From assembly GCA_964486045.1 (NCBI GenBank), contig CAZALK010000011.1, forward strand, positions 32,001 through 96,000: 64,000 nucleotides of DNA, read 5' to 3'. The DNA is from an uncultured archaeon. GTDB lineage: Archaea > Asgardarchaeota > Lokiarchaeia > Sigyniarchaeales > SOKP01. Shown in pieces: positions 143 through 44,317 of the stretch. A model generated the notes under the pieces. That model was not told the DNA's origin and did no database searches. It was given only the letters and a program-made list of their open reading frames with translations. The translations under genes and the position numbers were made by a program. Position 1 is the stretch's first letter; each line of letters begins with the position of its first letter.

Positions 143-706
143 TTAATTTCCCCATCTTTTTATATCAATTTCTATTCCTGTTTGATCTAGTATCCTCCCG
201 ATTGTATGGTTAATAATATCATCAACATTCTTAGGATTGTGATAAAATGAAGGTACTGGTGGAAATATTACAACACCGAGTCTTGTTAATTTCAGCATAT
301 TTTCAAGATGAATAGCACTTAAAGGAGTTTCTCTAACGACAAGAATAATCCTTCTTCTTTCTTTTATCATTACATCCGCAACCCTGCTAATTAAATTATC
401 AGAATAACCATTTGCTACAGCTGCTAATGTTTTCATTGAACATGGAATTACAACCATGTTTTCTATCACATATGATCCGCTTGACGGGGCAGCTGTTAAA
501 TCATTTACTTCATAATTTATTGCCGCCAATTTACGTACATCTTCAATACTATAATTAGTTTCAGCTTTTATTATAATTTCAGCTTTTTCAGAGATAATTA
601 GTTCCGTTTTAATTTCAAGGTTTTTTAATTCTTCAAGAAACTTAATTCCTAAGATAGCACCACTCGCACCTGTCATAGCAACTAGAATTTGTATTACACG
701 TTCCAG
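143..706 (-). CDS. ubiX: flavin prenyltransferase UbiX
   Basis: Motifs TGASG, SSGS, PCSMKTLA, RETPL and FY. The ORF track starts at 676, but the first beta strand (QILVAM) lies upstream, so the true start is probably ATA 694 or CTG 706. Confidence 0.93.
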   Translation of the reverse strand: MERVIQILVAMTGASGAILGIKFLEELKNLEIKTELIISEKAEIIIKAETNYSIEDVRKLAAINYEVNDLTAAPSSGSYVIENMVVIPCSMKTLAAVANGYSDNLISRVADVMIKERRRIILVVRETPLSAIHLENMLKLTRLGVVIFPPVPSFYHNPKNVDDIINHTIGRILDQTGIEIDIKRWGN

Positions 707-816
707 ACCAAATCTATATTTTCAATAATTAATGAAGAATGGGTAATTTAATATGAGAAATGATAATGATTTAAATTTTTTATTAGAATTTTTACATTAA
801 AATTAAAATAAATTAT

Positions 817-1884
817 TTAGAAAGATCTGTTTAAGACAAAATCTAATAAATTAATAAAAAATTCTGTTTCAGATTCATTAATAGTGGACTTTAACTTCTC
901 AATCGCTGTTTTAGCCTCTTGATAATATTTTTTGGCAATTTTCTTACAAGAATTAGCTGAATCTGCTCTAAGAAATAACTCCTTAACTTCATTAACGTCA
1001 TTTTCAGCCATTTTTGGCTTTTCAATTAATTCTAAAATTCGATTTTTTTCCTTTTCATTAGACTTATCTAAAGCTTCTATTAACAAACAAGTATGCTTAC
1101 CTTCTCGTATATCTCCATCAGTTGGTTTTCCCGTGATTTTTTCATCTCCAAAAGTTCCTAAAATATCATCAATTATTTGAAAAATAATGCCGAGATTCAC
1201 TCCATAAATTGAAAGAGGCTTTCTAAACTTTTCATCGGCTTTCGAATAGTTTGCTCCAATTAAAATCGATTTCTCAATTAATGCTCCAGTTTTTAGAGAG
1301 ATCATTTCAATGTAATCATCCATGGAAATTTTTTTTTGATTCACCATATCAGTTTCAATTAAAACACCATTGATTATATCCGTAAATGCTTGCTCATAAA
1401 GTTTAATTGCATTTAGGTTTAAGTCAACCTCAAAGTCATTGAAGAAATAAGCTTCTAATCCTGAAATAAACGCGGAATCACCTCCTATTATTCCAATGGA
1501 ATTACCAAAATCAGAGGCAATCATTTTTTTAAGTTGATACTTTTCATGATAATTTCTAAATCGGAAATGAAAAGCTGGTTTTCCCCTTCTAAAATCATCC
1601 TTATCAATGATATCATCATGAATTAATGAACCATTATGAAGGAATTCTGTCCCTACACTTGGTACGACAATCTTTTCGTCCCTTTGACCTTTAAAAGCAT
1701 TATAGGCGGCAATACATAGTAAAGGGCGTATTCTTTTTCCACCCGCTAAGAAATACTCTCTTAATTCTAAGTAATATTCTTTTAGAAATGAATTTTTTAC
1801 ACTTTTTAGTTTAGAATCATAAATAGATTTAATTGCATCATTTATTTTCTGTTTATATTCCTCAACATAATCTATAAATTTCAG
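817..1884 (-). CDS. idsA: polyprenyl/geranylgeranyl diphosphate synthase (IdsA/GGPPS family)
   Basis: The frame is open from CTG 1884 (just after a TAA) and includes GGKRIRP, FARM LIHDDIIDKDDFRRG, KTGAL and SARM FQIIDDILG. The ORF track captures only the C-terminal 235 aa. Confidence 0.92.
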   Translation of the reverse strand: MKFIDYVEEYKQKINDAIKSIYDSKLKSVKNSFLKEYYLELREYFLAGGKRIRPLLCIAAYNAFKGQRDEKIVVPSVGTEFLHNGSLIHDDIIDKDDFRRGKPAFHFRFRNYHEKYQLKKMIASDFGNSIGIIGGDSAFISGLEAYFFNDFEVDLNLNAIKLYEQAFTDIINGVLIETDMVNQKKISMDDYIEMISLKTGALIEKSILIGANYSKADEKFRKPLSIYGVNLGIIFQIIDDILGTFGDEKITGKPTDGDIREGKHTCLLIEALDKSNEKEKNRILELIEKPKMAENDVNEVKELFLRADSANSCKKIAKKYYQEAKTAIEKLKSTINESETEFFINLLDFVLNRSF

Positions 1885-2027
1885 AAATTACCACTATTCT
1901 CGTTTTTATTTTAAATTATAAAACAAAAATTTTTGTTTTATATAAGTGATATCAAATTATCAATATTCTTAATTACTAGAGAGTAAACTCTATTCTCAAA
2001 ATTTAAAAATTAGGGTAAAAACGCTTT

Positions 2028-3716
2028 TTGGCAAATTTAAAAAAATTAAAATCAAATAAAAAAAAATTAGGTTTAATAATCAGTATCTCAATAATAATCA
2101 TTGGGGTAGTACCACTACTTATTTTAACATTTGTTCCTGAACTGAGACATTCATATACAATTGAGCCATTAGCTCTTGAATCCGAAGATAACATATATAT
2201 TAGTGCTTTTAAATATACTCCAAAAGGGGAAAAAAGCCATGGTGGGATCGTTGTCGGTCATAGTTTTTTTGGGAATAAGCTCAATATGCAACCATTGAGT
2301 ATAGAATTTGTTAAACGAGGATTTACAGTAATAAATATAGATTTTCGAGGTCATGGTGCTTCCGGTGGAAATTTCTACCGTAGTGAATTAATAAAAGATA
2401 TGAAAGCTGCGGTTGATTATCTCGAATATAATTTATCATACATTTCTGAAATTGGACTCGTAGGACATTCATTAGGTGCGGAAGTAGCATTAAAGTTATC
2501 AAATGCTTATCCCGATAGAATCAACGCAACCGCGGCAATTGGGGCAACAACTGGCAATATTACATCAGTTTCGAATCTATTTTTAGCAGCAGGGGAATAT
2601 GACACAGGTTTATCTGAAGAAATAATGCTTGATGTCCTAAGATCATATACCGGGGAGGAAAATGTAGTAGTTGGTCAAATGTATTATGGAGATTTCAATG
2701 GAGGAAATAACATACAAGGTTTTATTAGCCCCTTTTCAGATCATTTAACTGAAATTATAGATTCAGCCATTATTTACCAAACAGTTCAATGGTTCGAGCA
2801 AGCGTTTAATGGAGAATTGGGGAGTGATATCTTTATAACAGCTACAATTTTGCAAGTTTTTTCCTATGTAGCTCTTTTTGGGGTAATCGTGCTGAATGCG
2901 GTATTAGTAATATATATTAGTACCTTCATTTTTAAAAATAGAAAATTTTTCCCCGAAAAAGAAATATTAAAAGAATTTGGGAGTCTATCATATAAAAAAC
3001 TCTCACTATATTATACCGTCCCTGTTGTGGTAATTCAATTTATCTTCTTTTTATTTCTCTCAGACATTACACTAGATATATTCCCCTTTTCTACGACAAG
3101 TATAACATTATTGCTAATCGTTGGAGCTGCGGTTGGGATAATACTTGTATATAATTTCCTTTTATTAAATTTAAGTGAAAAATTTTCTATCAGAGATTTC
3201 TTCTTGAAAATTAAATTAATGTGTTCCAAGAATTCTGGAAGGTCGGTTATTTATGGAACCCTAATAGGGTTACAAGTGATATTCTCAATAGCGGCAATTT
3301 GGCATTGGTCTGTACAAAATTCACTCCCAACTTTAGAAGGAATTGGGAGAATGATATTGATAACTCTTATATCTTTCCCTTTTTTTTTAATTAAAGAATT
3401 CTATTACAGAAATGTTCAGGGACGATTAAACATTTTAAGTCGATATGATGAATACATTGTAATGGTTGGAATTGGAATTATTATGGATAATACGCTTATC
3501 ATTTTTATAATAATAATAGGAAGAATCAATTTAGCTTACATACCAGCATATGTTCTTTACCTTTTAGGATGGGTCATTTTTTCAATTATACAACATGCCT
3601 CAGTTACTTATGTATATATGCATTCAGGGAGGAATATTTTAGGATCGACGATTTTTATAAGTATCTTTTACTCTTGGATTGTAGTTGTTTTTTTCCCATC
3701 CTATGGATTTCTGTAA
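2028..3716 (+). CDS. membrane-anchored alpha/beta hydrolase with multi-TM C-terminal domain
   Basis: N-terminal TM, DFRGHGAS, nucleophile elbow GHSLG, then about 8 hydrophobic helices. Confidence 0.8.
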   Translation: MANLKKLKSNKKKLGLIISISIIIIGVVPLLILTFVPELRHSYTIEPLALESEDNIYISAFKYTPKGEKSHGGIVVGHSFFGNKLNMQPLSIEFVKRGFTVINIDFRGHGASGGNFYRSELIKDMKAAVDYLEYNLSYISEIGLVGHSLGAEVALKLSNAYPDRINATAAIGATTGNITSVSNLFLAAGEYDTGLSEEIMLDVLRSYTGEENVVVGQMYYGDFNGGNNIQGFISPFSDHLTEIIDSAIIYQTVQWFEQAFNGELGSDIFITATILQVFSYVALFGVIVLNAVLVIYISTFIFKNRKFFPEKEILKEFGSLSYKKLSLYYTVPVVVIQFIFFLFLSDITLDIFPFSTTSITLLLIVGAAVGIILVYNFLLLNLSEKFSIRDFFLKIKLMCSKNSGRSVIYGTLIGLQVIFSIAAIWHWSVQNSLPTLEGIGRMILITLISFPFFLIKEFYYRNVQGRLNILSRYDEYIVMVGIGIIMDNTLIIFIIIIGRINLAYIPAYVLYLLGWVIFSIIQHASVTYVYMHSGRNILGSTIFISIFYSWIVVVFFPSYGFL

Positions 3717-4126
3717 TTTTTTTTATTTTTATCCATTACAGAATTATCCAGCATTGGTTTTAAGTGACTTAATAAATCATCAAAATCTGCTAAATCAAAA
3801 TGTTTTTTCAAAAAACCGTCTGCTTTTGTTTCAAGAGTTTTAATTGCAACCTCCGCTTCTGGAACTCCAGAAAAGTAATAAACAAGGATATCCTTGTATC
3901 TATCATTTGATTTGATATAGCTACAGAACTCATATCCACTCAAATGTGGCAAATGTACGTCTAAAAGAATTAACTGTGGTTTTTGGTTTTTTAATTCTTC
4001 AATTGCTTCTGAGGTATTACCAACAGATTTACATGAATAACCCTTAATTCGGAAAATCTTTTTTAGTAAATCAATTATATATTTGCTGTCATCTATAATT
4101 AAAATATCATATTGAGAATAGACCAA
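3701..4126 (-). CDS. single-domain response regulator (CheY-like receiver)
   Basis: ILIIDD, LILLDVHLPHLSGYE, ADGFLKK (KHF replaces the usual KPF). Confidence 0.88.
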   Translation of the reverse strand: MVYSQYDILIIDDSKYIIDLLKKIFRIKGYSCKSVGNTSEAIEELKNQKPQLILLDVHLPHLSGYEFCSYIKSNDRYKDILVYYFSGVPEAEVAIKTLETKADGFLKKHFDLADFDDLLSHLKPMLDNSVMDKNKKNYRNP

Positions 4127-4394
4127 TTTGAGATCAACTACAATTCATGTTGTTTTAGGTCCTTGCAACATCACTTTTTCTTAATATCCCTAATAACATA
4201 TCTCTAACAATAACAGAATTATTTAAATTTGAGTTTTTCGTTATAATTACTTGAGAATTTGATTTTTTCATATAAAAAAATGACACTTAAATTATATCAT
4301 ATCTTTTTGTCTCATTAGTTATAGATTTTAAAAATTCATATAGCTCTCTTTTTTTAGTTCCCCAGTTTTTCTTAGTCGTTAACAGATTACATCA

Positions 4395-7187
4395 TTAACT
4401 AGTTTCAATTTTAAAAGTTACAATAACATGAGGTTCTAATGAAATACTTAGTTGATTTTCACCATACCTATTAATTTTTGCTTTAATTTCATTTATTGGT
4501 TCTTCTTCGAGGAGGTTTACAATTTTCACACTTGTTATCGAAATTTCCTTAAAAAAAGTTAATAAAGCCTTTTGAGGAATGGATGATATGTTGTATACTC
4601 TTAGAATTAAATAATTTCCTACTTCAGCCTTTTTCAGAGCACTTAAAATTACATTGTTATTATCTATTTCAAGAAAACTAAGGACTGGTGGAAGGTAAGG
4701 CTTTAAATTTAATGATTTGGATACATCAAAGTACGATATAATTCCAGATGGTTGTAATATCACTTTATCTGAAACTCTAATAGGACTTTGTACCATATTA
4801 GGAAAAAGAGGTCTGAGGGGGCTGTTAAATTCTTTTCCTTTTTGATGTATCTCCGATTCTAACCAATTTGATTTTGAAGTAGTAATAAGCGATAATTCAA
4901 ATAAGTGTTTTCCAAGACACTGAGCACCTGGAGTGTTATATCCTGGACCAGCATGAGACATTTTTGTCTTAAAATCATCACGAGATAACCATCCAATACA
5001 TCTCAGAAGAGTAATCGCAAATGTTATTTTCTTTTCTTTATTAATTATAGCTTCATACTCGGGTATACCTTTATTAAGTACTGCAAAAGTTCTCGAATCA
5101 TCACTAATAGATATGAAATCTTTTTGGTGGTTAGTTGGTAAGGGTTTTTGGACCCAATCATCAGCGGGGGGTAGTTTTACACTCCTTGGAACAACATAAA
5201 AATGACCATCGGCATAAATTTTATCTGATTTTATTTTGGTAGGAAATAAAACACGAATTCGATGATCTTTACAATTATTTTCTAACTCAATCTTAAAATC
5301 GATTCGTTTTATACCTTTAAATAAGGAAATATATATGATTATTTCATTATCTACGAGACAATCTTCTCTATTGTTTCGTTCTTCTGTAAGTGAGTTGGGA
5401 AGCTTTAGATTTAGTCTTATTTTAAAGATTTTCTGAGTGGGACCATCTACATATATGGATCGTTCAATAACGGTAGCATCTTCAGATAGGAAAACTAAAT
5501 CTGTTTGATTTTCTTTTGGACCTGAAAAATCATATTCATCACCCCAATCTCCCATATCTTCAAATTCACATATATTTTTATAGGTCAGACCTGCTTCCTT
5601 GTCTACGACTTTAATAAAGCCATTAGAATCTATATCAATTCGATAAAATTCATTTTCTAGAAACTCTTGTTTTATATTAAAGAAATTGCTCTCCAATGGA
5701 AAAACATTAGCAGAATCAACTGGTTGAAGGTAATAAACTTTATATCCACATGCAGGTACTTCTGCCAAAAAGGTAAATTTATGACTTATACCAAGTTTTC
5801 GGGTGAATCTAGACTCTTCTTTAACTGAATGATATTGATAGGCAATTTCTCTTCCCTCAAAATCAGTCAATTTAAGATTATATGGAAATTTTTCACCACT
5901 CACTTTGCGAGATATTGTATTAAACTTGACAATATCCTTTCGTTGCCATGGGAGTGGATTAAATACTAGTATTGTATGTTGCCCATTAAGTTCATTATCA
6001 ATTTTTATAAGCTGAGCTAAATAAAGAAAGGAGTTTTTATAGACCTCATTTGCAATTTGTTCTGCCCAATCAAACCGAATTTTCATTTCATCGTGAACTT
6101 GGTCGATGCTACAGCCACATATACTGTCATGAGGCGCATTTTTTTGAAGCCACTTTAAACCAGTCAAAATATAATCTTTAGGGTAAGTAAACCTGTTATA
6201 TTTGTCTAATAACCACGTTATTGTTGATAAAGGTTCTGAATATCTTTCATAAAGGTATTCTATAGTAGTATTCCTCTGTTTAATCCAAATTCGAGCAGAA
6301 AAAACTCCAGATAATAGGTGAACATACCTTCCTCCTCTTAATTCTCCTTGAAATTCTTTTAATCCTGGATTTGATTCCAATACCTTATTGACATAATATT
6401 CAAAATCAGCTTGTACCATTAGTTGATCAGGGTGTGTTGTATTCCATTGTTTTATTATTTCAGGGATTTCTGGGCGTGCTTCATGGTGATCTGAACCATT
6501 GTTAAGAAGTATATTTGGAGTAGCTATGTATTTTTGAAAATTTTGTATCCTTTGTTTAATTGTTCTGAGGGCTGTTTTGTATTCACCCTTGATTTTTTTT
6601 CCATTTAATCTAGCTAGTGAACCATAGCTATAGATCAAATAAATCCCTAAAATTGATGCTGCTTTACCAGGTGCATTCCATGTAAATTCCATATTCAACT
6701 TATTATTTTCAAACTCATTGCCAAAGCCTCTCCAAAATATGACTGATGGGATTTCAAAACCGTGAATTATTTGAGGTAATTGAGCAATATGGCCAAAGGG
6801 ATCGGGGATATATCCAGCATTCATAACTCTACCAAACCTTCTACTAATTTGGTGTCCAATCATGAGATTTCTGATTATAGATTCCCCGCTGACTAAAAAT
6901 TCATCAGGTAATACATACATAGGACCAATAGAAAGCCTTCCCTCTTTTACATATCTTTTTATGTCTTCCTCTTTCTCTGGGCGTATCTCTAAATAATCCT
7001 CTAAAGGAATAGTTTGCCCATCTAGAACAAAATTTTTATACTCGGGATTCACTCTAAAAATTTCCAATAGTTTATCCATCATCATTACAAGTCTAGCACG
7101 GAATTCTTGAAAAGGGAGGTACCATTCTCTATCCCAATGAGTTTCTGGAACGATTATAATATTATTAGCTTTCATGAGAAATAGCAT
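4395..7187 (-). CDS. GH38 alpha-mannosidase
   Basis: ETHWDREWY, LDGQT, PDEFLVSGES, PDPFGH, HDSICGCSID motifs. Confidence 0.93.
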   Translation of the reverse strand: MLFLMKANNIIIVPETHWDREWYLPFQEFRARLVMMMDKLLEIFRVNPEYKNFVLDGQTIPLEDYLEIRPEKEEDIKRYVKEGRLSIGPMYVLPDEFLVSGESIIRNLMIGHQISRRFGRVMNAGYIPDPFGHIAQLPQIIHGFEIPSVIFWRGFGNEFENNKLNMEFTWNAPGKAASILGIYLIYSYGSLARLNGKKIKGEYKTALRTIKQRIQNFQKYIATPNILLNNGSDHHEARPEIPEIIKQWNTTHPDQLMVQADFEYYVNKVLESNPGLKEFQGELRGGRYVHLLSGVFSARIWIKQRNTTIEYLYERYSEPLSTITWLLDKYNRFTYPKDYILTGLKWLQKNAPHDSICGCSIDQVHDEMKIRFDWAEQIANEVYKNSFLYLAQLIKIDNELNGQHTILVFNPLPWQRKDIVKFNTISRKVSGEKFPYNLKLTDFEGREIAYQYHSVKEESRFTRKLGISHKFTFLAEVPACGYKVYYLQPVDSANVFPLESNFFNIKQEFLENEFYRIDIDSNGFIKVVDKEAGLTYKNICEFEDMGDWGDEYDFSGPKENQTDLVFLSEDATVIERSIYVDGPTQKIFKIRLNLKLPNSLTEERNNREDCLVDNEIIIYISLFKGIKRIDFKIELENNCKDHRIRVLFPTKIKSDKIYADGHFYVVPRSVKLPPADDWVQKPLPTNHQKDFISISDDSRTFAVLNKGIPEYEAIINKEKKITFAITLLRCIGWLSRDDFKTKMSHAGPGYNTPGAQCLGKHLFELSLITTSKSNWLESEIHQKGKEFNSPLRPLFPNMVQSPIRVSDKVILQPSGIISYFDVSKSLNLKPYLPPVLSFLEIDNNNVILSALKKAEVGNYLILRVYNISSIPQKALLTFFKEISITSVKIVNLLEEEPINEIKAKINRYGENQLSISLEPHVIVTFKIETS

Positions 7188-7276
7188 TTAATTGAAAATT
7201 CTAATTGCAATGATAAAAGAATACTTTAATAAAAATTAATTGAATATAAATGTAATAATTTGAAAAGGAAAAGTAA

Positions 7277-8809
7277 TCACCAATGTTGTTTGTGAGATAA
7301 AACTGATTGACCAATTACACTTGAATGAGGTTTCTTCCCTAACAAATCTAATAATGTGGGGACTATATCCGTAGTTTTACAATAAGATAGTCTAATTTTA
7401 GGAATTTCAAGAGATCCCCCTATGATTAAAGGTACAAGCATAGATCTTCTACTTGCTATGTCATGATTATAGAGTGAAATGTCTTTTGTCTTTCCATGCT
7501 CAAAATTAAAACAATATTCACCTCGAGTCGAAACCATAATATCACATGAACGAGGATTTTTGAAATAACGAGGAAGTTGATCTATTAACCCAACAAAATC
7601 AGATTTAAAGGTAGCTGAAAACCATTCATCAACAGTATGCCCTTTATCATCAAGTAAACCCTGAGATTCTTCGAAATTTTCATATCCCAATAAATCTTGA
7701 GTCTCATAAGCGTATTTAGTTTTCTGATCTCCTTCTATTCCATTATATTCTATTTTCCCTTTTAAAATTTTTCCATATTCTTTATCATAACGCTCTATAT
7801 GTATAGTTCCTTTATCAGGAGTACAATTGTCATCCTTATAATACATCAATTTTACACCAGGAATTTCCCATAATGTTTTAAACAGGTTTAGGGAATTGTT
7901 TCCTGCTCTATTTGTTTTATAATTCTTCATTTCCTTTATGGTTGGGTGGTGATGCCAAGTAGTTCCATGAAAATTGAAAAAACCAACACCACCAAAATTA
8001 GAATCAAAATCACCTAAACCTGTTTTTGGATTATAAGGTATTAGTCCTTTATTGTGGAAAAAAGGTTTAAGATCATATGATTTCTCAGCTTTATAATTTC
8101 CATGATCGGATGTAATGCAGATTGTGGTATCTTCATAATATCCTGTTTGTTTAAGAGTTTCTACTAACGATCCTATATAATCATCACATCGTAATATAAG
8201 ATTTCGATACTCTGGGTGATCGAAACCCAACTCATGCATATAAGCATCAGTATGAGGAATGTAACCAACCGTAATTATAGGAACCTCATTACTAGAAAAA
8301 AATTTATTTGGGTTTCTGTAAACTTCTTCAATCTTTTTAAAAATCGATTCTACTTTAAATTCATTAGGAATAGGGAAAATCGATCCCCGATATAAAAAGT
8401 TAATAACACTCAAAAGGTTTCCGTCGTCAACTTGCTCAAAAATTGTCTTTACACTTGACCCAACATCTTTATTGATTTTAAAAATATCACGCCGTTCACT
8501 ATAATTACGAATAAATGGTGGTTTTTTTCTCTCCAAAGGTGGATCTCTGCGATCAATCCAATGATAACTTGGTACTCCACTACCTTCTTTAGGATAATAT
8601 CCGGAATAAGATCCAGTTAGAATATTTGAATAACAAGGTAACGTTACACTAGGAAAAGATGTAATGCAATTTTGGCTTGTAATACCATTTTTAGCTATCT
8701 GTGCAATATTTGGAAGCTTTCCCTCAGCCAACCACTTGAACATATGTTCAGAGCGAACGTCATCAAGGATAATTAATAAAACTTGGTTAACTTTAGCACT
8801 ACGACTCAT
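7277..8809 (-). CDS. alkaline phosphatase superfamily protein (type I phosphodiesterase/nucleotide pyrophosphatase-like)
   Basis: LLIILDD, FPSVTLP nucleophile motif, DAYMH, TSDHG, DIVPT. Confidence 0.82.
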   Translation of the reverse strand: MSRSAKVNQVLLIILDDVRSEHMFKWLAEGKLPNIAQIAKNGITSQNCITSFPSVTLPCYSNILTGSYSGYYPKEGSGVPSYHWIDRRDPPLERKKPPFIRNYSERRDIFKINKDVGSSVKTIFEQVDDGNLLSVINFLYRGSIFPIPNEFKVESIFKKIEEVYRNPNKFFSSNEVPIITVGYIPHTDAYMHELGFDHPEYRNLILRCDDYIGSLVETLKQTGYYEDTTICITSDHGNYKAEKSYDLKPFFHNKGLIPYNPKTGLGDFDSNFGGVGFFNFHGTTWHHHPTIKEMKNYKTNRAGNNSLNLFKTLWEIPGVKLMYYKDDNCTPDKGTIHIERYDKEYGKILKGKIEYNGIEGDQKTKYAYETQDLLGYENFEESQGLLDDKGHTVDEWFSATFKSDFVGLIDQLPRYFKNPRSCDIMVSTRGEYCFNFEHGKTKDISLYNHDIASRRSMLVPLIIGGSLEIPKIRLSYCKTTDIVPTLLDLLGKKPHSSVIGQSVLSHKQHW

Positions 8810-8927
8810 GTTATCTAATAATTGATAATAACTTATATAAATTTTAAATAAAATAATGTTGTATAAGATTAGAGTTTTTGATTATTAAAAATTGAGGAAT
8901 GATCATTAGTAACTCTGTAAAGCGATA

Positions 8928-10004
8928 ATGAACACAAATCACACTATATATTTCAAAGATTCATCTGATATGAGTGAGTTACAGTCAAATTCTATTGATT
9001 TAATGATCACATCACCACCTTACCCCATGATAGAGATGTGGGATGCGTTATTTTCTTCTTTTAATGATGATATAAAACTAGCACTCGAAGAAAAGGATGG
9101 AAAAAGTGCATTTAATTATATGCATGAAGAGTTAGACAAGGTATGGCGAGAAGTCGCGCGTGTTTTAAAATCGGGGGGAATAGCTTGTATTAATATTGGA
9201 GATGCTACAAGAAAAATCAAAAATAGTTTCCAATTATATCCAAATCATGTTAAAATTACTAATTTTTTTCTGAATAGTGATTTTAATGAATTACCTTGCA
9301 TATTATGGAGAAAACCAACAAATATTCCAAATAAGTTTCTAGGTTCTGGGATGTTACCTCCTAATGCGTATGTTACTCTGGAACATGAATATATTTTGAT
9401 TTTTAGAAAAGGTAAAACTAAAAGAAAAATCCCCCCCAAATCAAAGAATAGATACAATAGTGCTTTTTTTTGGGAAGAAAGGAATAGATGGTTTTCTGAT
9501 ATATGGAAAAATATAAGAGGTATTTCTCAAAAATTAAAAGCTGATAATGGTATTCAAAAAAATTTGAGAGAACGCTCAGCAGCTTTCCCATTAGAATTAC
9601 CATATCGATTAATTAATATGTTTTCAATATATGAAGATTATATTTTAGATCCATTCTGGGGAACAGGCACTACTTCATTAGCTTCGATGATCTCAATGAG
9701 AAACTCATTTGGGTATGAATTAAATACTAACTTTTTAGAAATATTCAAAAAAAATGTAAACAATTCAAAGCAATTAAATATTGATATTAATAAAAAGAGG
9801 TTAAATAATCACATCAAATTTATTGACAATTACAGCAAGAAAGGAAAAGATATTAAATATAAATCAATTCACTATAAATTTCCTGTCATGACTAAACAAG
9901 AAACGAATTTTTTATTATATTCGATTAAAGATTGCAAGGAGAATCGAAATAAAATTATAATTGACCATGAAACTTTTAATATTGCCAATTTTATTGATGA
10001 ATGA
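8928..10004 (+). CDS. site-specific DNA methyltransferase, beta class (N4-cytosine/N6-adenine)
   Basis: TSPPY catalytic motif precedes the DPFWGTGTT SAM-binding motif; AAFP. Confidence 0.9.
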   Translation: MNTNHTIYFKDSSDMSELQSNSIDLMITSPPYPMIEMWDALFSSFNDDIKLALEEKDGKSAFNYMHEELDKVWREVARVLKSGGIACINIGDATRKIKNSFQLYPNHVKITNFFLNSDFNELPCILWRKPTNIPNKFLGSGMLPPNAYVTLEHEYILIFRKGKTKRKIPPKSKNRYNSAFFWEERNRWFSDIWKNIRGISQKLKADNGIQKNLRERSAAFPLELPYRLINMFSIYEDYILDPFWGTGTTSLASMISMRNSFGYELNTNFLEIFKKNVNNSKQLNIDINKKRLNNHIKFIDNYSKKGKDIKYKSIHYKFPVMTKQETNFLLYSIKDCKENRNKIIIDHETFNIANFIDE

Positions 10005-10973: not shown

Positions 10974-11026
10974 CCATTAAAATTCCATAATGCTTTATTG
11001 ATAAGTTTTCATTAATTGAACTAATT

Positions 11027-36500: not shown

Positions 36501-37098
36501 ATTACTCGATTTCCGAAAGAAAATAGGTAATGATTTAATGGAAATGAAGGGGGAAGTATCAAATTCACTTAAAAATGCTCTTTCTGATATCCCCCGAACT
36601 ATTGATGAAGCATTAAGCGCGACATCAGAAACCATGAATTTCCTTAATCAGGTGAAACAGATCGCTTTGGATATACAACCACCTGCGATAGAAAATACTT
36701 GGAGAGTAGTTGGATTAGAAGCAGTATATAAAGCAATTTCTTCCATTATTAAAAGAACAGAAAGAAATACAACATTACTAGTTCCAAAAATTGATGCAAT
36801 TCCTGTCGCTCTTTTAAAAGATTTCAACCCGAGAGCACGAATTGAAATCATCAGTGATGTTAAAGAGAATGATCCGCACCTGAAAAAATTAATTGAAACC
36901 TTTTCGGGAAATTTGAAAGTTCGAACTTATAAAAATTTAAATGTAATTGCAGCAGATCGGGATAATGATGAAATATTAATTGGACCATTTGGAAAGGATA
37001 TTGAATCTGAAGCCATTCAAACCACTCACGATAATCTCAGAAAGGTTTTATTTGAGTTAATTCCAACGATAAGAAATAAAGCTCAACCCCTAATTTAA
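33523..37098 (+). CDS. TrmB-like wHTH plus ~1000-aa helical/coiled-coil repeat region plus TrmB/PLD-like C-terminal domain
   Basis: N-terminal IGLSELEGQIYSTL..TLEEIS..L..KDY..YFPINP; C-terminal W.V.GLEAVY..I..IIKRTE....LL.P..ADRDNDEILIG. Likely ATG 33523 or 33532 (the track uses GTG 33484). Confidence 0.7.
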   Translation: MKIMVVKKLKQDLLSRIGLSELEGQIYSTLTGVGARTLEEISVYVGSDLSKTEEALNNLGKKDYINIIEGKIPLYFPINPQILLTAEAKNKLETDLHAINNKVNVILKSLTSMVEDVSSDFDNSINNISENSINSIETTISTIVEKLGSVFSTFQEEISTRSSDSGKSIGTEIEEKFKKLDLAFNKLRDDLENIMNTQVGELEKASDKLKTDLGNTLEETKTSRHKIVNEHKDNFLSILDAYSVSIEGIIKENYDELGKINSQFKEKSESDKANLEKLTEEVSGVSEEDMKTIIETIKESYEKAISQSIKNIESNWADINKEAKSFSNGIQNNLSDSNKNISSILESASSKSTEAFTSSTEALIKSLESFKSLRAKLGEILKSSTESVVLTGQNIYSPIETLINSILTEISEFMEKFRSKAQSLLENISISVKGENKKVLISIVEDYEQEMDQFKESTESSFSEGKENLFNQFSDFQANITNQLDSGNNNLIKSINSFSSSVEKSLSRMKGDISSPLEILMTDYKDSIRNFELGFTEGINKFSELVSNFQSGAVSDKNINKWISKNPEFQKTIDDTEAALMSRKNDLRNLVTTHTEKYEMDISGFLDILNRTLTGHVKAGQKSKATQNDQVKLIIKGVNKEIDTLGDTFKIAFANQVESLSQASKTISETSKNKVKSNLGFAEDNSQDDVYSKLINNMMIIFNNKIGEIQTETIATFKDKTDEFNNSTKENIEKSLKNLKTESSKFEESIPSNKDLDDAVNPHIKNTEEASKTVSDGLEHVIGDLVKDIEKIQTTLSSTLSEIQNIEGSSVADLNESNLKIANQIDSEGGALIKNSTQIIVDFRSKVLSLLNQDSEQKNLTMDKLQNSFKEQVEKLFSKYKDETIGNKERIVKVSNDHLESVDRNYNIVSNTILGMGAEPIRLIKNVAIDAMQDLTNLISQNILSIKELLFGSSDEIKRILDDFSKNSVEILSTTKENSEQNLLNQASSSKDQLLDFRKKIGNDLMEMKGEVSNSLKNALSDIPRTIDEALSATSETMNFLNQVKQIALDIQPPAIENTWRVVGLEAVYKAISSIIKRTERNTTLLVPKIDAIPVALLKDFNPRARIEIISDVKENDPHLKKLIETFSGNLKVRTYKNLNVIAADRDNDEILIGPFGKDIESEAIQTTHDNLRKVLFELIPTIRNKAQPLI

Positions 37099-37244
37099 CC
37101 CAAAATAACTATTATTATTTTTAAAAAATAATTAAAATCTCATTTTTCAAATTTATATTGTTTTAGTTTTACAAATTCTTTTTTAATATCAGTTTTATTA
37201 TTTTTTAAATAATTTTAAAAAAAAACCAAGAAAGAAGAAATTAA

Positions 37245-39035
37245 ATGATTTTGGAAAATCGAGATGTTTTTGTTGGTCGAACAGCTATTTTAAATGAGTT
37301 TCGAGGATCATTTATCGTAAAGCAGCAGAAGGATGTCCCTAGGGTTTATATCATAAAAAGTCAACCCGGAACTGGAAAATCTAAATTGCTTGAGATATTT
37401 GACAAGACCGCTCAATCGGAACGTTTAAAAGTCTTTTCATTTAAGATTCCTATTAGTACAGAAAAACTTAAGTATTTTCCTAAAGTAATCCTGGAAAAAA
37501 TACAGAATATTCTTCCCACTCAACTCAGTAAACAGAAAAAAAAGGAAAGAGATAAAAAATGGAAAGGTAAAAAGCCTCTTACAGAATGGACATTCACTGA
37601 TTTATCCGATAATTTTTTTACTAAACTAGAAGAACAAGATGAAGACCTTAAAATAGCACGGGATGCTGTCGTCCTGTTACTTGATAATGTTGAAAATCTT
37701 GTGTTAAAGCAAGATTTTGTTGAGGAAACGGTTACCTTGATCTTTAAAATGGCGGACTGGATAATGGAGAATAAGGCAAATATAATCATGGTGTTTTCCA
37801 TTGATTCCAACTATTTAGAATCTTTGAAACATGATATCAGTGGATATAAAGTGCATGAACTTCTTGCATTAGATATGAGAGAATCTGAAGTATTAATCCG
37901 AAGATTAGAAAAAGAGATCACAGGAGATGTGATTAATAGAGATATTCATCAGGAAATCATTAAGGTGACTGACCGAACACCATTCTCTCTTATTTCTGTT
38001 TTATCATATATCTCATCTAAGGATAAATCTGAAATCAGTAGCATCTTTGAATTTATAGAATCAACGGAAACAAATGATGATGAGAATTCATCGATGGAAG
38101 AGAATGAAGTAGATGTTGTTGATAGCCTCGCATGGAAATCTTTAAAGGAGGAATTAGCAGGCAATTATATAGAAGACCTTTTAAATCTAAAGAGAACGGA
38201 ATCTAAATTAATTCATTTTTTACTACCCAAATCTCAAGATAATCTCTTTTCTATCTCAGACATGAATATTCCAAAAGAATTAATTCTTGTTATTGATTCT
38301 TTAGTTGAAAAAAAAATTATGTTCAAAGAAGATGATTTTTTTCAATTTGAATCCTCAGCATTATATCACTTTTTAAAGCAAAGATCCTTTAAACCCAATA
38401 TTTTAGCGGAACTTAAAATTTATCTGGACTTAATAAAAACTTATATTTTACAAAAATTGAAAACACCATCTTATTTAATTGCCAGATTAGAAAAAAATAT
38501 TGATTTAATTAACCAACAAGATTCTGCCGATGTTGATAAATCCCTCGCTTACGATATTGCCGTGAAAACGGAGATATATGGTCAAAACCTATTTGAGTTG
38601 AATTATTTTCATGATGCATTCATTTTATTTATTAGCACAGGAAATTTATTTAATTTGGCAGGGGATATAGAAAGAGCGGCTTCGACATTTGAAAATAGTT
38701 CAAAATTATTTATTGAAAATAGTCTTCCAGTATATGGAAAAAAGCTTCTGATTGAAGCATCAGAATTATTCTCTAGCACGGGATTAGATTATAAAGCAAA
38801 AAGTATGGCAAGAGAAGCTTTATGGCTGATTGAAGAAATTGCTGATGACTATTCAAGTAAAGATCTTCATAATCTCGCTAGAGTGTATTATTATCATGCA
38901 CAAAAATTATGCGATATCGCTGATGAGAGCGATAAAAAAATTGAATTAATTGAAAAAGCCATTATTTCTTCCGGAAATTCTAAAATAAGAAAGTCTTATT
39001 TTGAAAAGCTCTTATCAGAAGGTAACAATGATTGA
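37245..39035 (+). CDS. STAND/AAA_16-like P-loop NTPase with C-terminal TPR/SNAP-like repeats
   Basis: FVGR..IL, Walker A SQPGTGKS, Walker B VLLLDNVE, TP.sL motif, helical repeats. Confidence 0.7.
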   Translation: MILENRDVFVGRTAILNEFRGSFIVKQQKDVPRVYIIKSQPGTGKSKLLEIFDKTAQSERLKVFSFKIPISTEKLKYFPKVILEKIQNILPTQLSKQKKKERDKKWKGKKPLTEWTFTDLSDNFFTKLEEQDEDLKIARDAVVLLLDNVENLVLKQDFVEETVTLIFKMADWIMENKANIIMVFSIDSNYLESLKHDISGYKVHELLALDMRESEVLIRRLEKEITGDVINRDIHQEIIKVTDRTPFSLISVLSYISSKDKSEISSIFEFIESTETNDDENSSMEENEVDVVDSLAWKSLKEELAGNYIEDLLNLKRTESKLIHFLLPKSQDNLFSISDMNIPKELILVIDSLVEKKIMFKEDDFFQFESSALYHFLKQRSFKPNILAELKIYLDLIKTYILQKLKTPSYLIARLEKNIDLINQQDSADVDKSLAYDIAVKTEIYGQNLFELNYFHDAFILFISTGNLFNLAGDIERAASTFENSSKLFIENSLPVYGKKLLIEASELFSSTGLDYKAKSMAREALWLIEEIADDYSSKDLHNLARVYYYHAQKLCDIADESDKKIELIEKAIISSGNSKIRKSYFEKLLSEGNND

Positions 39036-39070
39036 TTTCTATAAAATAAAAAGAAAGAGGTTGAAAAAAA

Positions 39071-40660
39071 ATGAGTGAAAAAATATCTAAAATTATTATA
39101 AAACTAGACGAAGATATTAAAGAAATTACAGCTGTAGAACAAAAAATTGAGACTTCAAGAAAAGACTTCAGTATAGAAGTACAAAATTTAAAAACAAATG
39201 TAATGTCAATCATAGATGGAATAAAAAAAGAGAATGTAACAATCACAGATAATATAATTTCTTCTTCGAATAAATTCATTGATGAATTAAGTCAAGAGGA
39301 ATTAAAGTTAATTAATGATCTTGAAACTGAATCAAAAAATCAAGATTACTGGAATAAATATATTGAGTCTTTGGATGAAAAAAACCAATCTTTAATTTCA
39401 ATGCTTGAAGAAACTAAAGGAACATTACAAGATGTTTCTTCAAATTATGAAAAACAATTGAAAGATCTTTTAATGGGGCTAAACAATACTCAAGAAAATA
39501 ATTCTTTAAACCTAAGTGAAAAATTGTTAAATCATATAAGGAGTGTAATTGAATCAATTAAAAATGCATCAAATGATTTTGAAACAAAGGCTAAAGATTC
39601 TCATCACAATTTAAATGAATCAGTAAGCGCTTTCCTGAAAGAATATTCGTTAAAAATGAATGAAACCTTAGATAATACTACTCAAAACATTGGAGATTCA
39701 TTAAATATGGATGAAATCGATTTAAAAACAATACTTTCTACAAAAATTGAGGATGTTCATGAAAAATTTCAAGAGGGATTATACGGTTCATTAGAAGGTG
39801 TTATAGATTCGTTTACAATGTTTAAAACCATTTTTGAGCAAAATATCGATGATGCAATATCCCGACTCACTGAAGTTGCAAAACAATTAAAAAGTCAAAT
39901 TGATGAGATTTTGTTAAATAAATTAAAGGAATTAGAAAATTTTTCATCAAATTATGAAGAAAAATTTATTACATTCATGAATGAGTCTATTAGTCAAATC
40001 GCCGAGGATGTTACTTCAAAAATGAACCAAACCAATGAAAATTTAACTAATAATGCGAAAAAAATTCAAGAAACATTCAATACAAAAAACTCAGAGCAGA
40101 TGGAAGTGATTCAATCGAATTTTGCATCAACAGATAAGAATATAACGAGTTTAATGAAAGATTTTAGTGAAAAGTTAACTCAAGCAGAGGCGGATGTAAA
40201 AGTTATGATTGACTCAAGTTTGAACGAATCTGAATTAGCAATACATAAATCTGTTGAAGAAACAGAACAGGTTATTGTCAATGAAACTAATGATAAATTG
40301 AAAGAATTAATTGTTTTAATTAGTGAAACAAGAGAAAAAACAGAAAAAATATTTAATATAGTTAAAACTGAATCTGATACAATTCAATCGACATTACAAG
40401 AGGATGTTTCTGCTAGAAAAACTTCAATGTCAAGTCAGTTGGACTCTATTAAAAATTCTACCAATAGCACTTTAAACGGTTTAAAAGAAACAATAATATC
40501 ACATGTAATTAAATTTGACACTATAAGCAAAGAAGGTGAAATTTCAATTCAAGAATTAGATAAAGGCCTTTCAAAAGATATTGATAATATTAAAAAAATC
40601 TTCGGTAGAGCCAAAAAAGCTACAGAAAATATAGCTAAAGAACATAAAAAGACATATTAA
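39071..40660 (+). CDS. long coiled-coil/apolipoprotein-like repeat protein
   Basis: 529 aa, almost devoid of Pro/Gly/Cys, with amphipathic periodicity like the central region of 33523-37098. Confidence 0.65.
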   Translation: MSEKISKIIIKLDEDIKEITAVEQKIETSRKDFSIEVQNLKTNVMSIIDGIKKENVTITDNIISSSNKFIDELSQEELKLINDLETESKNQDYWNKYIESLDEKNQSLISMLEETKGTLQDVSSNYEKQLKDLLMGLNNTQENNSLNLSEKLLNHIRSVIESIKNASNDFETKAKDSHHNLNESVSAFLKEYSLKMNETLDNTTQNIGDSLNMDEIDLKTILSTKIEDVHEKFQEGLYGSLEGVIDSFTMFKTIFEQNIDDAISRLTEVAKQLKSQIDEILLNKLKELENFSSNYEEKFITFMNESISQIAEDVTSKMNQTNENLTNNAKKIQETFNTKNSEQMEVIQSNFASTDKNITSLMKDFSEKLTQAEADVKVMIDSSLNESELAIHKSVEETEQVIVNETNDKLKELIVLISETREKTEKIFNIVKTESDTIQSTLQEDVSARKTSMSSQLDSIKNSTNSTLNGLKETIISHVIKFDTISKEGEISIQELDKGLSKDIDNIKKIFGRAKKATENIAKEHKKTY

Positions 40661-40702
40661 TGAAAAAATTTGTAAAAAAATAAAGTTAACAAATCAAATC
40701 AA

Positions 40703-42856
40703 TTATCTTAAATCCATTTTATCCTCACAATAAGGGCAGTGAAGTGGAAGCTCTTCGTCACAAGTCTCTAATTCTTCACTACTTAATATACTCTTCCAAC
40801 AAACTAGTTTCTCCCCTTTTTTAACCATATCTCTTCCGTGATGTTGTGGAATAATATCCTTCGTATCACAGTGCTCACAGATGATAAGTTTAGACTCACT
40901 TTCAATTTCTTCGGTTGAGATCTCCTTGTAGAGATATTTATATCTGAAAATTGTCATGCTGTTTATTAAAATTACGAGTGATAGACCCATATCTCCCACA
41001 CCTACTGCAACCCACAGTGTCATAAAGCCAATAACTGTAAGAATTGCAAAGGAGACCTTTATAATTATGGAAGACCAGATGTTTTCTTTAATTTTTTTAT
41101 TTGTTTTTTTAGCTATGTCAATGTAAGTAAGAATTTTCTTTAGATCATCATTAATTATGATTATATCGGCAGTTTCGAGAGTAACATCCGTAGCAGAAGC
41201 ACCTATTGCGATTCCTAAATCTGAAAGAGCTAAAGCGGGAGCGTCATTGATTCCATCGCCAACCATAGCTACCCCCTTATATTGTTTCTTAAGATTTTTG
41301 ACCTCTTCTAGTTTTTGATCCGGTAAATGTTCACCATATGCACGATCTATATCCAAACAAGCACCAATTGAATCGCATACTCTCTGATTATCACCCGATA
41401 TTAAGATAGTTTCATAACCTCTTTTTTTTAATCCTTTTATTAGAATGGGTGCTGATACCCTTAATACATCCCTTATAGAAAGTATTCCTAATAGATTATA
41501 TTTGTTTCCCAGTAGTATTGGAATTGTCCCAGAATTTTCTATTTCTATAATATCCTCAATAGGTAGCTCGTAGTTCAATTCTTCAATGAAGGTTTGACTT
41601 CCCACATAAAAAAATTCCCCATTTATCTTTCCTTTTATACCTTTTCCCTTGATTATTTCAAAATCCTCAACATTCTGAAAAGTTAAATCCATTTTCTTTG
41701 CTTGTTTTACAATAGTTTTGCCAATTGAATGTTCTGAAAGAGCTTCTAAACTTGCCCCTATCCCAATAACATCTGATTTTGATGCTCCATTGTAAGAAAA
41801 AATATTGAATATTTTTAGCTTCCCTTCAGTAAGTGTGCCAGTCTTATCGAATGCGAACACTTCAATATCTTGAATTTTTTCGATAAACTTATTTCCTTTA
41901 ACTAACACCCCCTCTCTTGCAAGTTTTGTCAATGATGCTATATTAGCTAAAGGAGTAGATAATGTTAATGCACAAGGACAAGAAACGACTAGTAGAACTA
42001 ATCCACGATAAAACCACTCATAAAAATTTAAGTTAAACAAAATAGGTAAAATCATAACAAATATAGACGATAGAATGATTAGGGGAGTGTAATACTTTGC
42101 AAATTTTTCAATAAACTTTTCTTGGGTACTTTTATTTTGTTGAGCTACTTTAACACTCTCAGCAATTTGAGCTACTATGGTATTTTTACTCTCACGTATA
42201 ACTTCAATATCCACAAAACTGTCTGAATTTATACTTGCTGCAAAGATTTCTTTACCCTTCTTTTTAAATACGGGAATTGATTCTCCAGTTATCGCGCTTT
42301 CATCAAAATAAGAACCACCTTTAACTATAATACCATCTAGAGGGACTTTCATACCTGGTTTTATCCCAATAATATCTCCAACTTTCACCTCTCTTGAAGG
42401 GGTGTTCTTATACCCATTTTCTATTTTTAGTAAAGACTCATCAGGGGCTAACTCAAGCAATTCTTTAATTGCATTCCTTGACTTATCAGCCGTTAATTCT
42501 TCCAACATTTCTGCTATTGCATATAAAAGTATGGCAGTCGCCCCTTCCTGTCCATGAAAGATAAAAAATGATGCGATACCAGCAATTAACATTAGTATAT
42601 TTGCTGTAATTTTTTTATTTTTAACATCCTCAATAGCTTCCTTCACTACTCCTGAGCTTGAAAGGAGAATTGATATGATAGCTAATAATTGATCGATTAT
42701 TATCAGATCGAGTGTAATTTCCATAAAAATTGAAATTGCTAAAATTATCCCTGCCGGGATAAGGAAATACCAGAAATTTTCTTCAAAAAAAGATTCTTCC
42801 TCTGATTCCTCCTCAATTTCTTCGCAAAAAGATGTTGAACATGCTGTTGTATTTAT
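40703..42856 (-). CDS. zntA: P1B-2 type heavy-metal (Zn/Cd/Pb) P-type ATPase with C-terminal Cys/His metal-binding domain
   Basis: TGES, CPC, DKTGT, GDGIND, Lys in TM7 and Asp/Gly in TM8. The frame extends to ATA 42856 behind AGGTGAG, adding CSTSFC, an acidic stretch and TM1. Confidence 0.9.
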   Translation of the reverse strand: MNTTACSTSFCEEIEEESEEESFFEENFWYFLIPAGIILAISIFMEITLDLIIIDQLLAIISILLSSSGVVKEAIEDVKNKKITANILMLIAGIASFFIFHGQEGATAILLYAIAEMLEELTADKSRNAIKELLELAPDESLLKIENGYKNTPSREVKVGDIIGIKPGMKVPLDGIIVKGGSYFDESAITGESIPVFKKKGKEIFAASINSDSFVDIEVIRESKNTIVAQIAESVKVAQQNKSTQEKFIEKFAKYYTPLIILSSIFVMILPILFNLNFYEWFYRGLVLLVVSCPCALTLSTPLANIASLTKLAREGVLVKGNKFIEKIQDIEVFAFDKTGTLTEGKLKIFNIFSYNGASKSDVIGIGASLEALSEHSIGKTIVKQAKKMDLTFQNVEDFEIIKGKGIKGKINGEFFYVGSQTFIEELNYELPIEDIIEIENSGTIPILLGNKYNLLGILSIRDVLRVSAPILIKGLKKRGYETILISGDNQRVCDSIGACLDIDRAYGEHLPDQKLEEVKNLKKQYKGVAMVGDGINDAPALALSDLGIAIGASATDVTLETADIIIINDDLKKILTYIDIAKKTNKKIKENIWSSIIIKVSFAILTVIGFMTLWVAVGVGDMGLSLVILINSMTIFRYKYLYKEISTEEIESESKLIICEHCDTKDIIPQHHGRDMVKKGEKLVCWKSILSSEELETCDEELPLHCPYCEDKMDLR

Positions 42857-43082
42857 AACTTCTCACCTATGTAATAATTGTCATTAATTCAATTAGAACT
42901 TAACAATTATTGAGTATAAGAGAATTATCTTATATTTGAAGGCATTTAATTATTCTTCGACATTATTTTTATTTTTAATAAATTTCGGGAAAAAAATCAA
43001 TTCAAATTGTTATTTCAGATTTGAGATATTCTATAATAAAGTCCGGATATATCATTGTTATTTTAAATAATCTTTAAGACGG

Positions 43083-44297
43083 TTAAAAAGAGGATTCTTT
43101 GCTTTTTCGACATAATTTAAGAAATTGAGGTATAATTTCAAATAAATCACCAATGATTCCAAAATCCGCTACTTTAAATATCGGGGCTTCAGGATCATTA
43201 TTTATTGCTATAATAATATCACTCGTTTGCATTCCAACTAAATGTTGAATTGCTCCACTAATACCTAGGGCAATATATAATTTAGGAGATACAGTTTTTC
43301 CTGATTGACCAACTTGAATTGGATATTTTGTCCAACCAAGTTCTACTAATGCTCGTGAGCTTGATACTGTTCCTTTTAGTTCCTGTGCAAGCTCGTAAAT
43401 TAATTTGATATTTTCCTTGCTTCCAATACCTCTTCCAACTGAAACTAAGATGTCTGTATTTTCAATATCTATTAATTCTGTTTTGGAACTAATTTCTTCA
43501 ATAATTTTTGTTCTAATACTTTGTTTTTCTAATTTTACGATTATTTTTTCAATAGAGCCTTTGTTGGGTTGTTTTGATTTAATTTCTGAAAAAGTATTTG
43601 GTCTAACTGTTGCCATCTGTGGTCTTGTATATGGAGATAATATGGAGGCCATTATATTACCCCCAAAAGCAGGGCGAGTTTGAACAAGTTGCTTTTGTTT
43701 GTTAATTGATAAACCAGTACAATCTGCTGTTAATCCCAAACTAAGTCTAGCTGCTATTCTAGGTGCTAATTCACGTCCCTTTATTGTTGCACCGTATAAT
43801 ACGATCGATGGTGTTTTATCTATTATTAATGAAGTAAGTACAGTTGTATATCCATCATTTGAAAACTCTTTTAAAAGTTCATGTTCACAGAGATACACAA
43901 TATCTGTACCATAATAAAATAGTTCATCGATTATTGCTGATATTCCTGGAAGTCCAAGAACAACCACAGAAATTTTTTCTTTAAGTTCTTTATTCAACTC
44001 TAAAGCTTTACTTAATAATTCGTACACTACTTTTTTAAACTGTAATTGTCCATTCTTATTTTCTGTTTCCCCCCATATCATAATCCCTTTAAATTTCTTA
44101 AGATCCTTAACGGATTTCATTATATGCTCTATACTAAGGGCTTTATATCTACAAATATTTACACAAGAACCGCATAATGTGCAATTATCAAGCACTTTAG
44201 CCTTTTTAGTATCTAAATCGATAATTATTGCTCCATAGGGGCATATTTGTTCGCAAATTTTGCATCCAATACAAGTTTCTTCATTAATTTGGAGTAT
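43083..44297 (-). CDS. etfA: electron transfer flavoprotein alpha subunit with N-terminal 2x[4Fe-4S] ferredoxin domain
   Basis: GLTADCT, RPAFGGN, QVGQSGKTV, GISGAIQH. The upstream in-frame CIGCKICEQICP motif requires a start at ATA 44297 or CTA 44300 behind AGGTGG. Confidence 0.93.
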   Translation of the reverse strand: MLQINEETCIGCKICEQICPYGAIIIDLDTKKAKVLDNCTLCGSCVNICRYKALSIEHIMKSVKDLKKFKGIMIWGETENKNGQLQFKKVVYELLSKALELNKELKEKISVVVLGLPGISAIIDELFYYGTDIVYLCEHELLKEFSNDGYTTVLTSLIIDKTPSIVLYGATIKGRELAPRIAARLSLGLTADCTGLSINKQKQLVQTRPAFGGNIMASILSPYTRPQMATVRPNTFSEIKSKQPNKGSIEKIIVKLEKQSIRTKIIEEISSKTELIDIENTDILVSVGRGIGSKENIKLIYELAQELKGTVSSSRALVELGWTKYPIQVGQSGKTVSPKLYIALGISGAIQHLVGMQTSDIIIAINNDPEAPIFKVADFGIIGDLFEIIPQFLKLCRKSKESSF

Positions 44298-44317
44298 TAG
44301 ATTTCCACCTTAGTTTA

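Follow-up and report, generated by a model that had tools for sequence, protein, structure and literature searches.

The window analysed here is a 64,000 nt stretch of DNA from an uncultured archaeon (Asgardarchaeota; Lokiarchaeia; Sigyniarchaeales; SOKP01), namely positions 32,001-96,000 of the forward strand of contig CAZALK010000011.1 (assembly GCA_964486045.1). The G+C content of the window is 31%, and the draft genome, which is metagenome-assembled with an estimated contamination of 7.8%, comprises 5.18 Mb in 45 contigs. Six genes in the window appear to begin at near-cognate codons, ATA, ATT or CTG, lying upstream of the first ATG, GTG or TTG in the frame. These genes, the Shine-Dalgarno (SD) motifs that precede them and the associated features are as follows.

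40703-42856, minus strand: P1B-type heavy-metal ATPase, 717 codons from ATA 42856-42854
42862-42868, minus strand: SD AGGTGAG, containing an in-frame TGA, 5 nt before ATA 42856
43083-44297, minus strand: EtfA with an N-terminal 2x[4Fe-4S] ferredoxin domain, proposed start ATA 44297-44295
44305-44310, minus strand: SD AGGTGG, 7 nt ahead of ATA 44297, directly after the stop codon of the upstream etfB
19290-20210, minus strand: gene of 306 codons with no Pfam family, proposed start ATT 20210-20208, in-frame TGA 20171-20169 probably read as selenocysteine (Sec)
20220-20225, minus strand: SD GGAGGT, 9 nt before ATT 20210
19205-19285, minus strand: structured element in the 3' untranslated region (UTR), resembling a selenocysteine insertion sequence (SECIS), with AUGA...UGAUGA flanks around nested helices
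817-1884, minus strand: short-chain prenyl diphosphate (geranylgeranyl diphosphate-type) synthase, 355 codons from a proposed CTG start at 1884-1882
1890-1894, minus strand: weak SD-like GTGGT before CTG 1884; AGTGGT matches GGTGAT at 4/6 positions, at the modal spacing
143-694, minus strand: UbiX flavin prenyltransferase, with candidate starts ATT 688-686 (favoured), ATA 694-692 and the annotated ATG 676-674
11027-11986, minus strand: Roadblock/LC7-Ras-like GTPase, short form, probable start ATT 11986-11984, alternative TTG 11971
11993-11999, minus strand: SD AAGGTGA, which includes the in-frame TGA bounding the open reading frame (ORF), 6 nt before ATT 11986

An earlier reading of the letters alone (the sequence-only reading) had claimed these six near-cognate sites, and the codons and SD-like motifs that it described are all present. 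In each of the six genes, coding sequence is conserved upstream of the first ATG, GTG or TTG, and the upstream stretch is bounded by an in-frame stop. Domain positions were taken from Pfam matches to the translated stop-to-stop ORFs; in four of the six genes (prenyl synthase, UbiX, EtfA and ATPase), a start at the first canonical codon loses recognisable functional sequence. Frameshifted starts were considered and rejected, as the out-of-frame ATG, TTG or GTG codons near each site meet stops within 2-20 codons.

For each gene, orthologs were also taken from as many as 54 species-level genomes within the genus. For every gene except the Roadblock-GTPase, there are orthologs with a canonical ATG, TTG or GTG that is aligned with the proposed codon or displaced from it by one codon. 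The position holds start-like codons only, and never the common leucine and isoleucine synonyms TTA, CTT and CTA. The comparison of orthologous starts, which the sequence-only reading had put forward as a check, is therefore favourable to it: the near-cognate codons either align with canonical starts (five of six genes) or are conserved across independently assembled genomes.

In the ATPase ORF (40703-42862, minus strand), the first ATG (42724) falls within the first predicted membrane helix, and the public call of 673 aa begins there. Among 30 orthologs from the genus, TAGGTGA and a further 6 nt are followed by ATT (about 19) or ATA (7), and once by ATG (L055). The first canonical codon is not fixed in these orthologs and lies anywhere between codons 36 and 88. 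In pairwise comparison, the extension differs by 0.20/0.12/0.44 at codon positions 1/2/3 and the gene body by 0.125/0.04/0.43, compared with 0.44/0.51/0.52 in the 60 nt upstream; the extension evolves as coding DNA. The proposal that the N-terminal part of the ATPase lies upstream, with ATA 42856 behind AGGTGAG, is supported both by these coding-type substitutions and by the ATT or ATA of approximately 26 of the 30 orthologs.

The EtfA ORF (43083-44309, minus strand) contains a Fer4 motif at residues 7-28. The first canonical codon, GTG 44195, is residue 39, and a start there would delete the first cluster motif. The codon aligned with ATA 44297 is again ATA in the two closest orthologs (L022 and L023) and is ATG in L024 (67% identical). 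Both the Fer4 position and these aligned ATA and ATG codons bear out the suggestion that the first 4Fe-4S motif precedes the canonical start, with ATA 44297 behind AGGTGG. In a paralogous EtfA group, 14 genomes have CTG 6 nt after a conserved AAGGTGA, nine have TTG and one has ATA. In the genomes with CTG, the next canonical codon lies 5-106 codons downstream (at least 28 in all but one genome); a start there would delete the ferredoxin domain. A third EtfA paralog, on contig C21 of this genome, G000 (C21:53441-54436, plus strand), lacks a ferredoxin domain and has no canonical start before codon 29. In this paralog ATT and ATC lie 4 and 7 nt after a GGTGAT.

In the gene at 19290-20210, GGAGG is followed by 10 nt, ATT 20210, 13 codons, the TGA at 20171-20169 and then ATG 20150, at which the public call of 286 aa begins. 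The arrangement of GGAGGT, 9-10 nt, ATA or ATT, 13 codons and TGA is kept in 27 of 30 genomes of the genus, and the orthologs show codon-level conservation with synonymous variation on both sides of the TGA. A single internal TGA is present throughout the family to which the genome belongs (f1), including genera at 40-43% identity. Outside genus g13, every readable f1 ortholog has ATA or ATT as its start codon; the g13 orthologs have a GTG start one codon downstream and a C-x-x-U motif. In a second family (f2), the G040 homolog carries an ATG opposite ATT 20210, and both homologs inspected (G028 and G040) have cysteine (TGC or TGT) at the TGA position. The ATT 20210 start is well supported by these alignments, as is the earlier suggestion that this selenocysteine candidate, with ATT behind GGAGG, fits the same pattern as the other genes.

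The genome encodes a tRNA-Sec(TCA) (C15:137829-137921). Conservation of the 3' UTR element extends to 29 orthologs, in which several pairs show compensatory changes; an Rfam scan of 18900-20400 gave nothing above noise and no SECIS family. The in-frame TGA probably encodes selenocysteine, and the gene probably an undescribed selenoprotein of a new family that has no Pfam match. In three orthologs (L144, L155 and L170), a 37 nt insert directly follows the TGA, which puts the main frame at +1 relative to the ATA-initiated leader. In two of these three genomes the insert folds into a perfect hairpin of 8-10 bp, in which the differences are compensatory. It may represent a frameshift site, a mobile hairpin or loss of the Sec leader.

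The prenyl synthase has the longest upstream stretch described here. Its stop-to-stop ORF spans 817-1887 (minus strand), and the first canonical codon, ATG 1524 (ORF residue 122), lies 120 codons past CTG 1884. A run of 120 stop-free codons is beyond chance, because AT-rich non-coding DNA has approximately 0.08 stops per codon. The Pfam polyprenyl_synt match begins at residue 40 of the ORF, and the FARM motif (IHDDIID), which is the first aspartate-rich motif, is upstream of ATG 1524; the public call of 235 aa, which begins at this ATG, is without it. The CTG AAA TTT at 1884 is aligned with ATG AAA TTT in 17 orthologs and with TTG AAA TTT in two, one of which is the closest (82% identity). The claim of 120 extra codons, including FARM, from CTG 1884 thus stands, with ATG or TTG aligned in 19 orthologs of the genus.

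In the UbiX ORF (143-721, minus strand), the Pfam Flavoprotein domain begins at residue 11 and ATG 676 is residue 16. Orthologs in the genus read ATG CTA GTT GCT ATA ACA GGT, where this genome has ATT(688) CTA GTT GCT ATG(676) ACA GGT. Strand beta-1 is kept with a start at ATT 688 or ATA 694 and is lost with ATG 676. The sequence-only reading correctly placed the first beta strand upstream of the canonical start, but listed ATA 694 and CTG 706 as the starts, while the orthologous ATG aligns with ATT 688. This alignment favours ATT 688 as the putative start; ATA 694 is possible, since Met1 of a solved UbiX structure (PDB 6m8v) lies opposite it.

The probable start of the Roadblock-GTPase is ATT 11986, with TTG 11971 as the alternative. 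AAGGTGA, 6 nt and ATT are kept in both of the other short-form orthologs read (L113 and L114), in which the first canonical codon is codon 18 or 14. This gene had also been described as fitting the pattern, with ATT 11986 after AGGTGA, and the ATT itself proves to be conserved in the three short forms read. The short form, of 321-325 codons, is found in this genome and three relatives; most Roadblock-GTPase homologs in the genus (L115-L136) have frames of 686-704 codons, with approximately 370 extra codons upstream of the Roadblock domain. A second short paralog is encoded at 20319-21302 of the window. Divergent from the Roadblock-GTPase gene is a giant ORF of 2308 codons (12218-19144, plus strand; start TTG 12221). 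A contig from another sediment sample (run X2, described below) and a low-depth contig of run X4 carry a 24 nt in-frame insertion at window position 13797, within this giant ORF, which represents strain variation.

The association of near-cognate codons with SD motifs was then assessed across the genome. The 3' end of the 16S rRNA is GGATCACCTCCT, and the SD consensus is therefore GGAGGTGATCC. The set comprised 3602 non-overlapping stop-to-stop ORFs of at least 150 codons, in which in-frame codons at least 5 codons upstream of the first canonical start were scored by their distance to strong SD words. Excess was taken as the count at an SD distance of 8-11 over that at flanking distances. A first version of the test, with GTGAT and TGATC as SD words, was too noisy and was replaced.

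At an anchor distance of 9-10, canonical starts show a peak; the same sharp peak is seen for ATA, ATT and ATC, and all other codons pooled give a dip. With 5-mer SDs, the excess is 23.5 for ATA, 17.3 for ATT, 9.7 for ATC, 2.8 for CTG, 2.7 for TCT and 2.5 for ACG, which ranks sixth; with 4-mer SDs, the five codons with the greatest excess are ATA, ATT, ATC, CTG and ACG. The near-cognate excess amounts to approximately 56 sites, compared with 146 for first canonical starts, and with 6-mer SDs the corresponding figures are approximately 33 and 38. Near-cognate codons out of frame showed no enrichment at SD spacing in this genome-wide test. Of the six genes, EtfA, the ATPase, the Roadblock-GTPase and the Sec gene have an SD at canonical spacing, and the prenyl synthase and UbiX have degenerate SDs only. 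The earlier proposal of SD-driven initiation at near-cognate codons is upheld by the genome-wide excess, but it describes the prenyl synthase and UbiX, with their weak SDs, less well.

A floor of approximately 60 genes, or approximately 2% of genes, is indicated for near-cognate starts. There are 113 ORFs with at least 30 coding-like codons before any canonical start; 31 of them (approximately 27%) have a near-cognate codon behind an SD of at least 5 nt, mostly no more than 7 codons from the bounding stop, compared with 12 in a frame-shifted control. Extrapolation from codon usage weakly suggests up to approximately 300 genes (approximately 9%). This total is rough: log-odds codon-usage scores separate coding from non-coding extensions weakly over 20-30 codons, and the null derived from SD-bearing genes is biased by G-rich SD regions. 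Within the window, six of approximately 45 real genes are affected, in keeping with the sequence-only estimate of roughly one gene in ten. Seven other window genes have 10-38 stop-free codons before a canonical start, but their Pfam domains start downstream and a near-cognate start is not needed.

The comparison across families covered 0.4-1.2 Mb per genome and has low power. Counts at SD spacing were as follows.

This genome, 1.1 Mb: near-cognate 18, background 5.0, canonical 42
Same genus, G006, 0.4 Mb: near-cognate 11, background 3.2, canonical 22
Other family, AT-rich, G032, 1.2 Mb: near-cognate 11, background 2.8, canonical 63
GC-rich relative, G033, 0.4 Mb: near-cognate 3, background 2.2, canonical 31

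The near-cognate trait is common to the genus, and the start of the Sec gene is common to the sampled genera of the family. The trait looks weaker in the one other AT-rich family (G032), and was undetected in the 0.4 Mb sampled from the GC-rich relative.

Taken together, these comparisons make it very probable that the six genes are intact and are translated from near-cognate starts behind SD motifs by means of the ordinary initiator tRNA. The starts would be mainly AUA, AUU and AUC, with CUG and ACG rarer. In such a mechanism, the duplex between the SD (GGAGGUGA) and the 3' end of the 16S rRNA would set the near-cognate codon in the P site at the usual spacing, and initiator tRNA-Met (anticodon CAU) would pair with a codon carrying one mismatch, either at the third position (AUH) or as in CUG and ACG. 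The single mismatch would be tolerated because the duplex positions the codon in the P site. The protein would still begin with methionine, the yield may be lower than from AUG, and start-codon checking by aIF1 may be relaxed.

One initiator-type tRNA-Met was found (C1:583601-583725, plus strand), with A1:U72, a GGG/CCC anticodon stem and the anticodon CAU. It carries a 49 nt intron after position 37, which includes a TGATGA (C-box-like) motif. The tRNA set is incomplete: ARAGORN, with and without introns, and the Rfam tRNA model gave 12-31 tRNAs, and the initiator was found with a hand-made pattern. The sole SUI1/aIF1 gene (C1:612478-612693, minus strand) has no methionine codon in its frame of 108 codons. 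The third codon of this frame is an ATT, which lies before the Cys-knuckle (zinc-knuckle) motif and 9 nt after GTGA, and is likely to be the aIF1 start. Such a start fits feedback of the kind known for initiation factor 3 (IF3), with which it is compatible without being proof of it. A wider proposal would make relaxed start selection a family-wide trait of approximately 5-10% of genes, with or without a strong SD, including aIF1 with IF3-like feedback, and would leave many published Asgard proteins truncated at the N terminus. This can be entertained only tentatively, and we think it somewhat more doubtful than not.

Several observations weigh against translation of the six genes from near-cognate starts. 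Among the orthologs seen, CTG 1884 and ATT 688 are each found in this genome only, and a strong SD is lacking at both; in these two genes the start may have been lost recently by mutation, and expression may be reduced or absent. UbiX has ATG 676 four codons downstream of ATT 688, and the Roadblock-GTPase has the canonical TTG 11971 five codons downstream of ATT 11986. Incomplete tRNA detection leaves room for a second, unusual initiator. In addition, most ORFs with long coding-like extensions remain unexplained by a strong SD with a near-cognate codon.

One alternative is that the near-cognate codons are decayed starts, and that the genes are silent, are pseudogenes or are translated in truncated form from the next canonical codon. 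A single base separates CTG 1884 from the TTG of the closest relative, and ATT 688 likewise differs by one base from the ATG of its orthologs; in UbiX, a new ATG arose four codons downstream. With only degenerate SDs, the prenyl synthase and UbiX are more plausible cases of a recently weakened start than are the other four genes. However, the frames are intact over 192-719 codons, the extensions are under coding constraint, and the ATT, ATA and CTG states are kept in dozens of species-level genomes. First canonical codons vary in their position, and a product that began there would be missing FARM, the first Fe-S motif, strand beta-1 or one half of a membrane helix. As an account of the six genes, start loss is improbable.

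Special decoding, by a wobble-modified initiator tRNA or a second initiator that reads AUH, would replace plain tolerance of a mismatch. A modification of this type, 5-formylcytidine at position 34 (f5C34), allows mitochondrial tRNA-Met to read AUA. The excess in this genome is concentrated on the third-position variants ATA, ATT and ATC, as in mitochondrial start sets, and introns are the reason for the incomplete detection of tRNAs. However, the only initiator-type tRNA gene found has the anticodon CAU, and a change in wobble would leave the occurrence of CTG and ACG unaccounted for. We regard special decoding as unlikely, to the same degree as start loss.

The bases at two of the sites were compared with contigs from two sediment samples, as the sequence-only reading had advised that they be verified. 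The contig of run X1 (possibly the source sample; depth approximately 265) shows 0 differences over 600-3679. That of run X2, from another sample of the same study, shows eight single-nucleotide polymorphisms (SNPs) in 600-5504, none of them at 686-688 or 1882-1884, and the two within the prenyl synthase extension are synonymous. Both codons are confirmed by these contigs. More distant relatives in run X5 have ATG at 688-686 (A>C at 686). Consensus or assembly errors that mask true ATG codons, which a metagenome-assembled draft in 45 contigs with some contamination might raise, have a negligible probability given this agreement and the recurrence of identical near-cognate codons in many independent assemblies.

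NCBI translation table 11 formally lists ATA, ATT, ATC and CTG as possible starts, yet the deposited gene calls here begin at ATG and are truncated. Public collections hold forms of 673, 235, 177 and 286 aa from this contig, in agreement with the sequence-only expectation of systematic truncation. In mitochondria, translation starts at AUA, AUU and AUC, and AUA also encodes methionine in elongation through a modified tRNA-Met. Mitochondria share the AUH start set and an AT-rich genome with the archaeon; however, ATA is abundant here in ordinary in-frame positions, and nothing suggests its reassignment.

In bacteria, AUU and AUA starts behind extended SDs have been described for infC and pcnB and for Staphylococcus aureus cvfC1, ccpN and citZ, with reporter yields of approximately 10-30% of that from AUG (PMC13009471). 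The bacterial cases (infC and pcnB in Escherichia coli; infC, cvfC1, ccpN and citZ in S. aureus; PMC13009471) likewise combine a codon with one mismatch, normal spacing, a strong SD and conservation among relatives. There the gene of the fidelity factor IF3 uses a near-cognate start, as the aIF1 gene may do here. The bacterial examples number only a few genes in each genome and have a regulatory rationale, whereas at least approximately 60 SD-supported cases are indicated here, housekeeping enzymes, a transporter and a probable selenoprotein among them. Initiation here also differs in its machinery, which is of the archaeal and eukaryote-type aIF1/aIF1A/aIF2 kind.

Leadered, SD-assisted initiation occurs in archaea, as here. 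A review of archaeal translation gives AUG, GUG and UUG as the only starts and reports that SDs are not prevalent in the one Lokiarchaeon genome analysed (PMC7531240), an account that is repeated in a 2026 review of the Asgard archaea (PMC12993045). Ribosome profiling of Haloferax volcanii placed approximately 30% of putative alternative start sites at near-cognate codons, which were set aside as possible false positives (PMC7261190). A full-text literature search found no report of AUA, AUU, AUC or CUG as main starts in conserved archaeal genes or in Asgard archaea. Near-cognate starts behind SDs are thus known in bacteria, and as the main starts of conserved archaeal genes they would appear to be new.

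If a few per cent of genes start at ATA, ATT, ATC or CTG, the proteins predicted by standard gene calling are missing catalytic motifs, Fe-S clusters, membrane helices and even selenocysteine sites. Asgard genomes, nearly all of them from uncultured organisms, are mined for eukaryote-like proteins, and such truncation errors pass into structure predictions and phylogenies. The SD-anchored test could be applied to any genome to flag affected lineages. If the trait were family-wide, many published Asgard proteins, including eukaryotic-signature GTPases, would be truncated at the N terminus. A lineage with homologs of eIF1, eIF1A and eIF2, with tolerance of near-cognate codons behind SDs and with no AUG in its own aIF1 gene would offer a natural system in which to study how start-codon stringency is determined.

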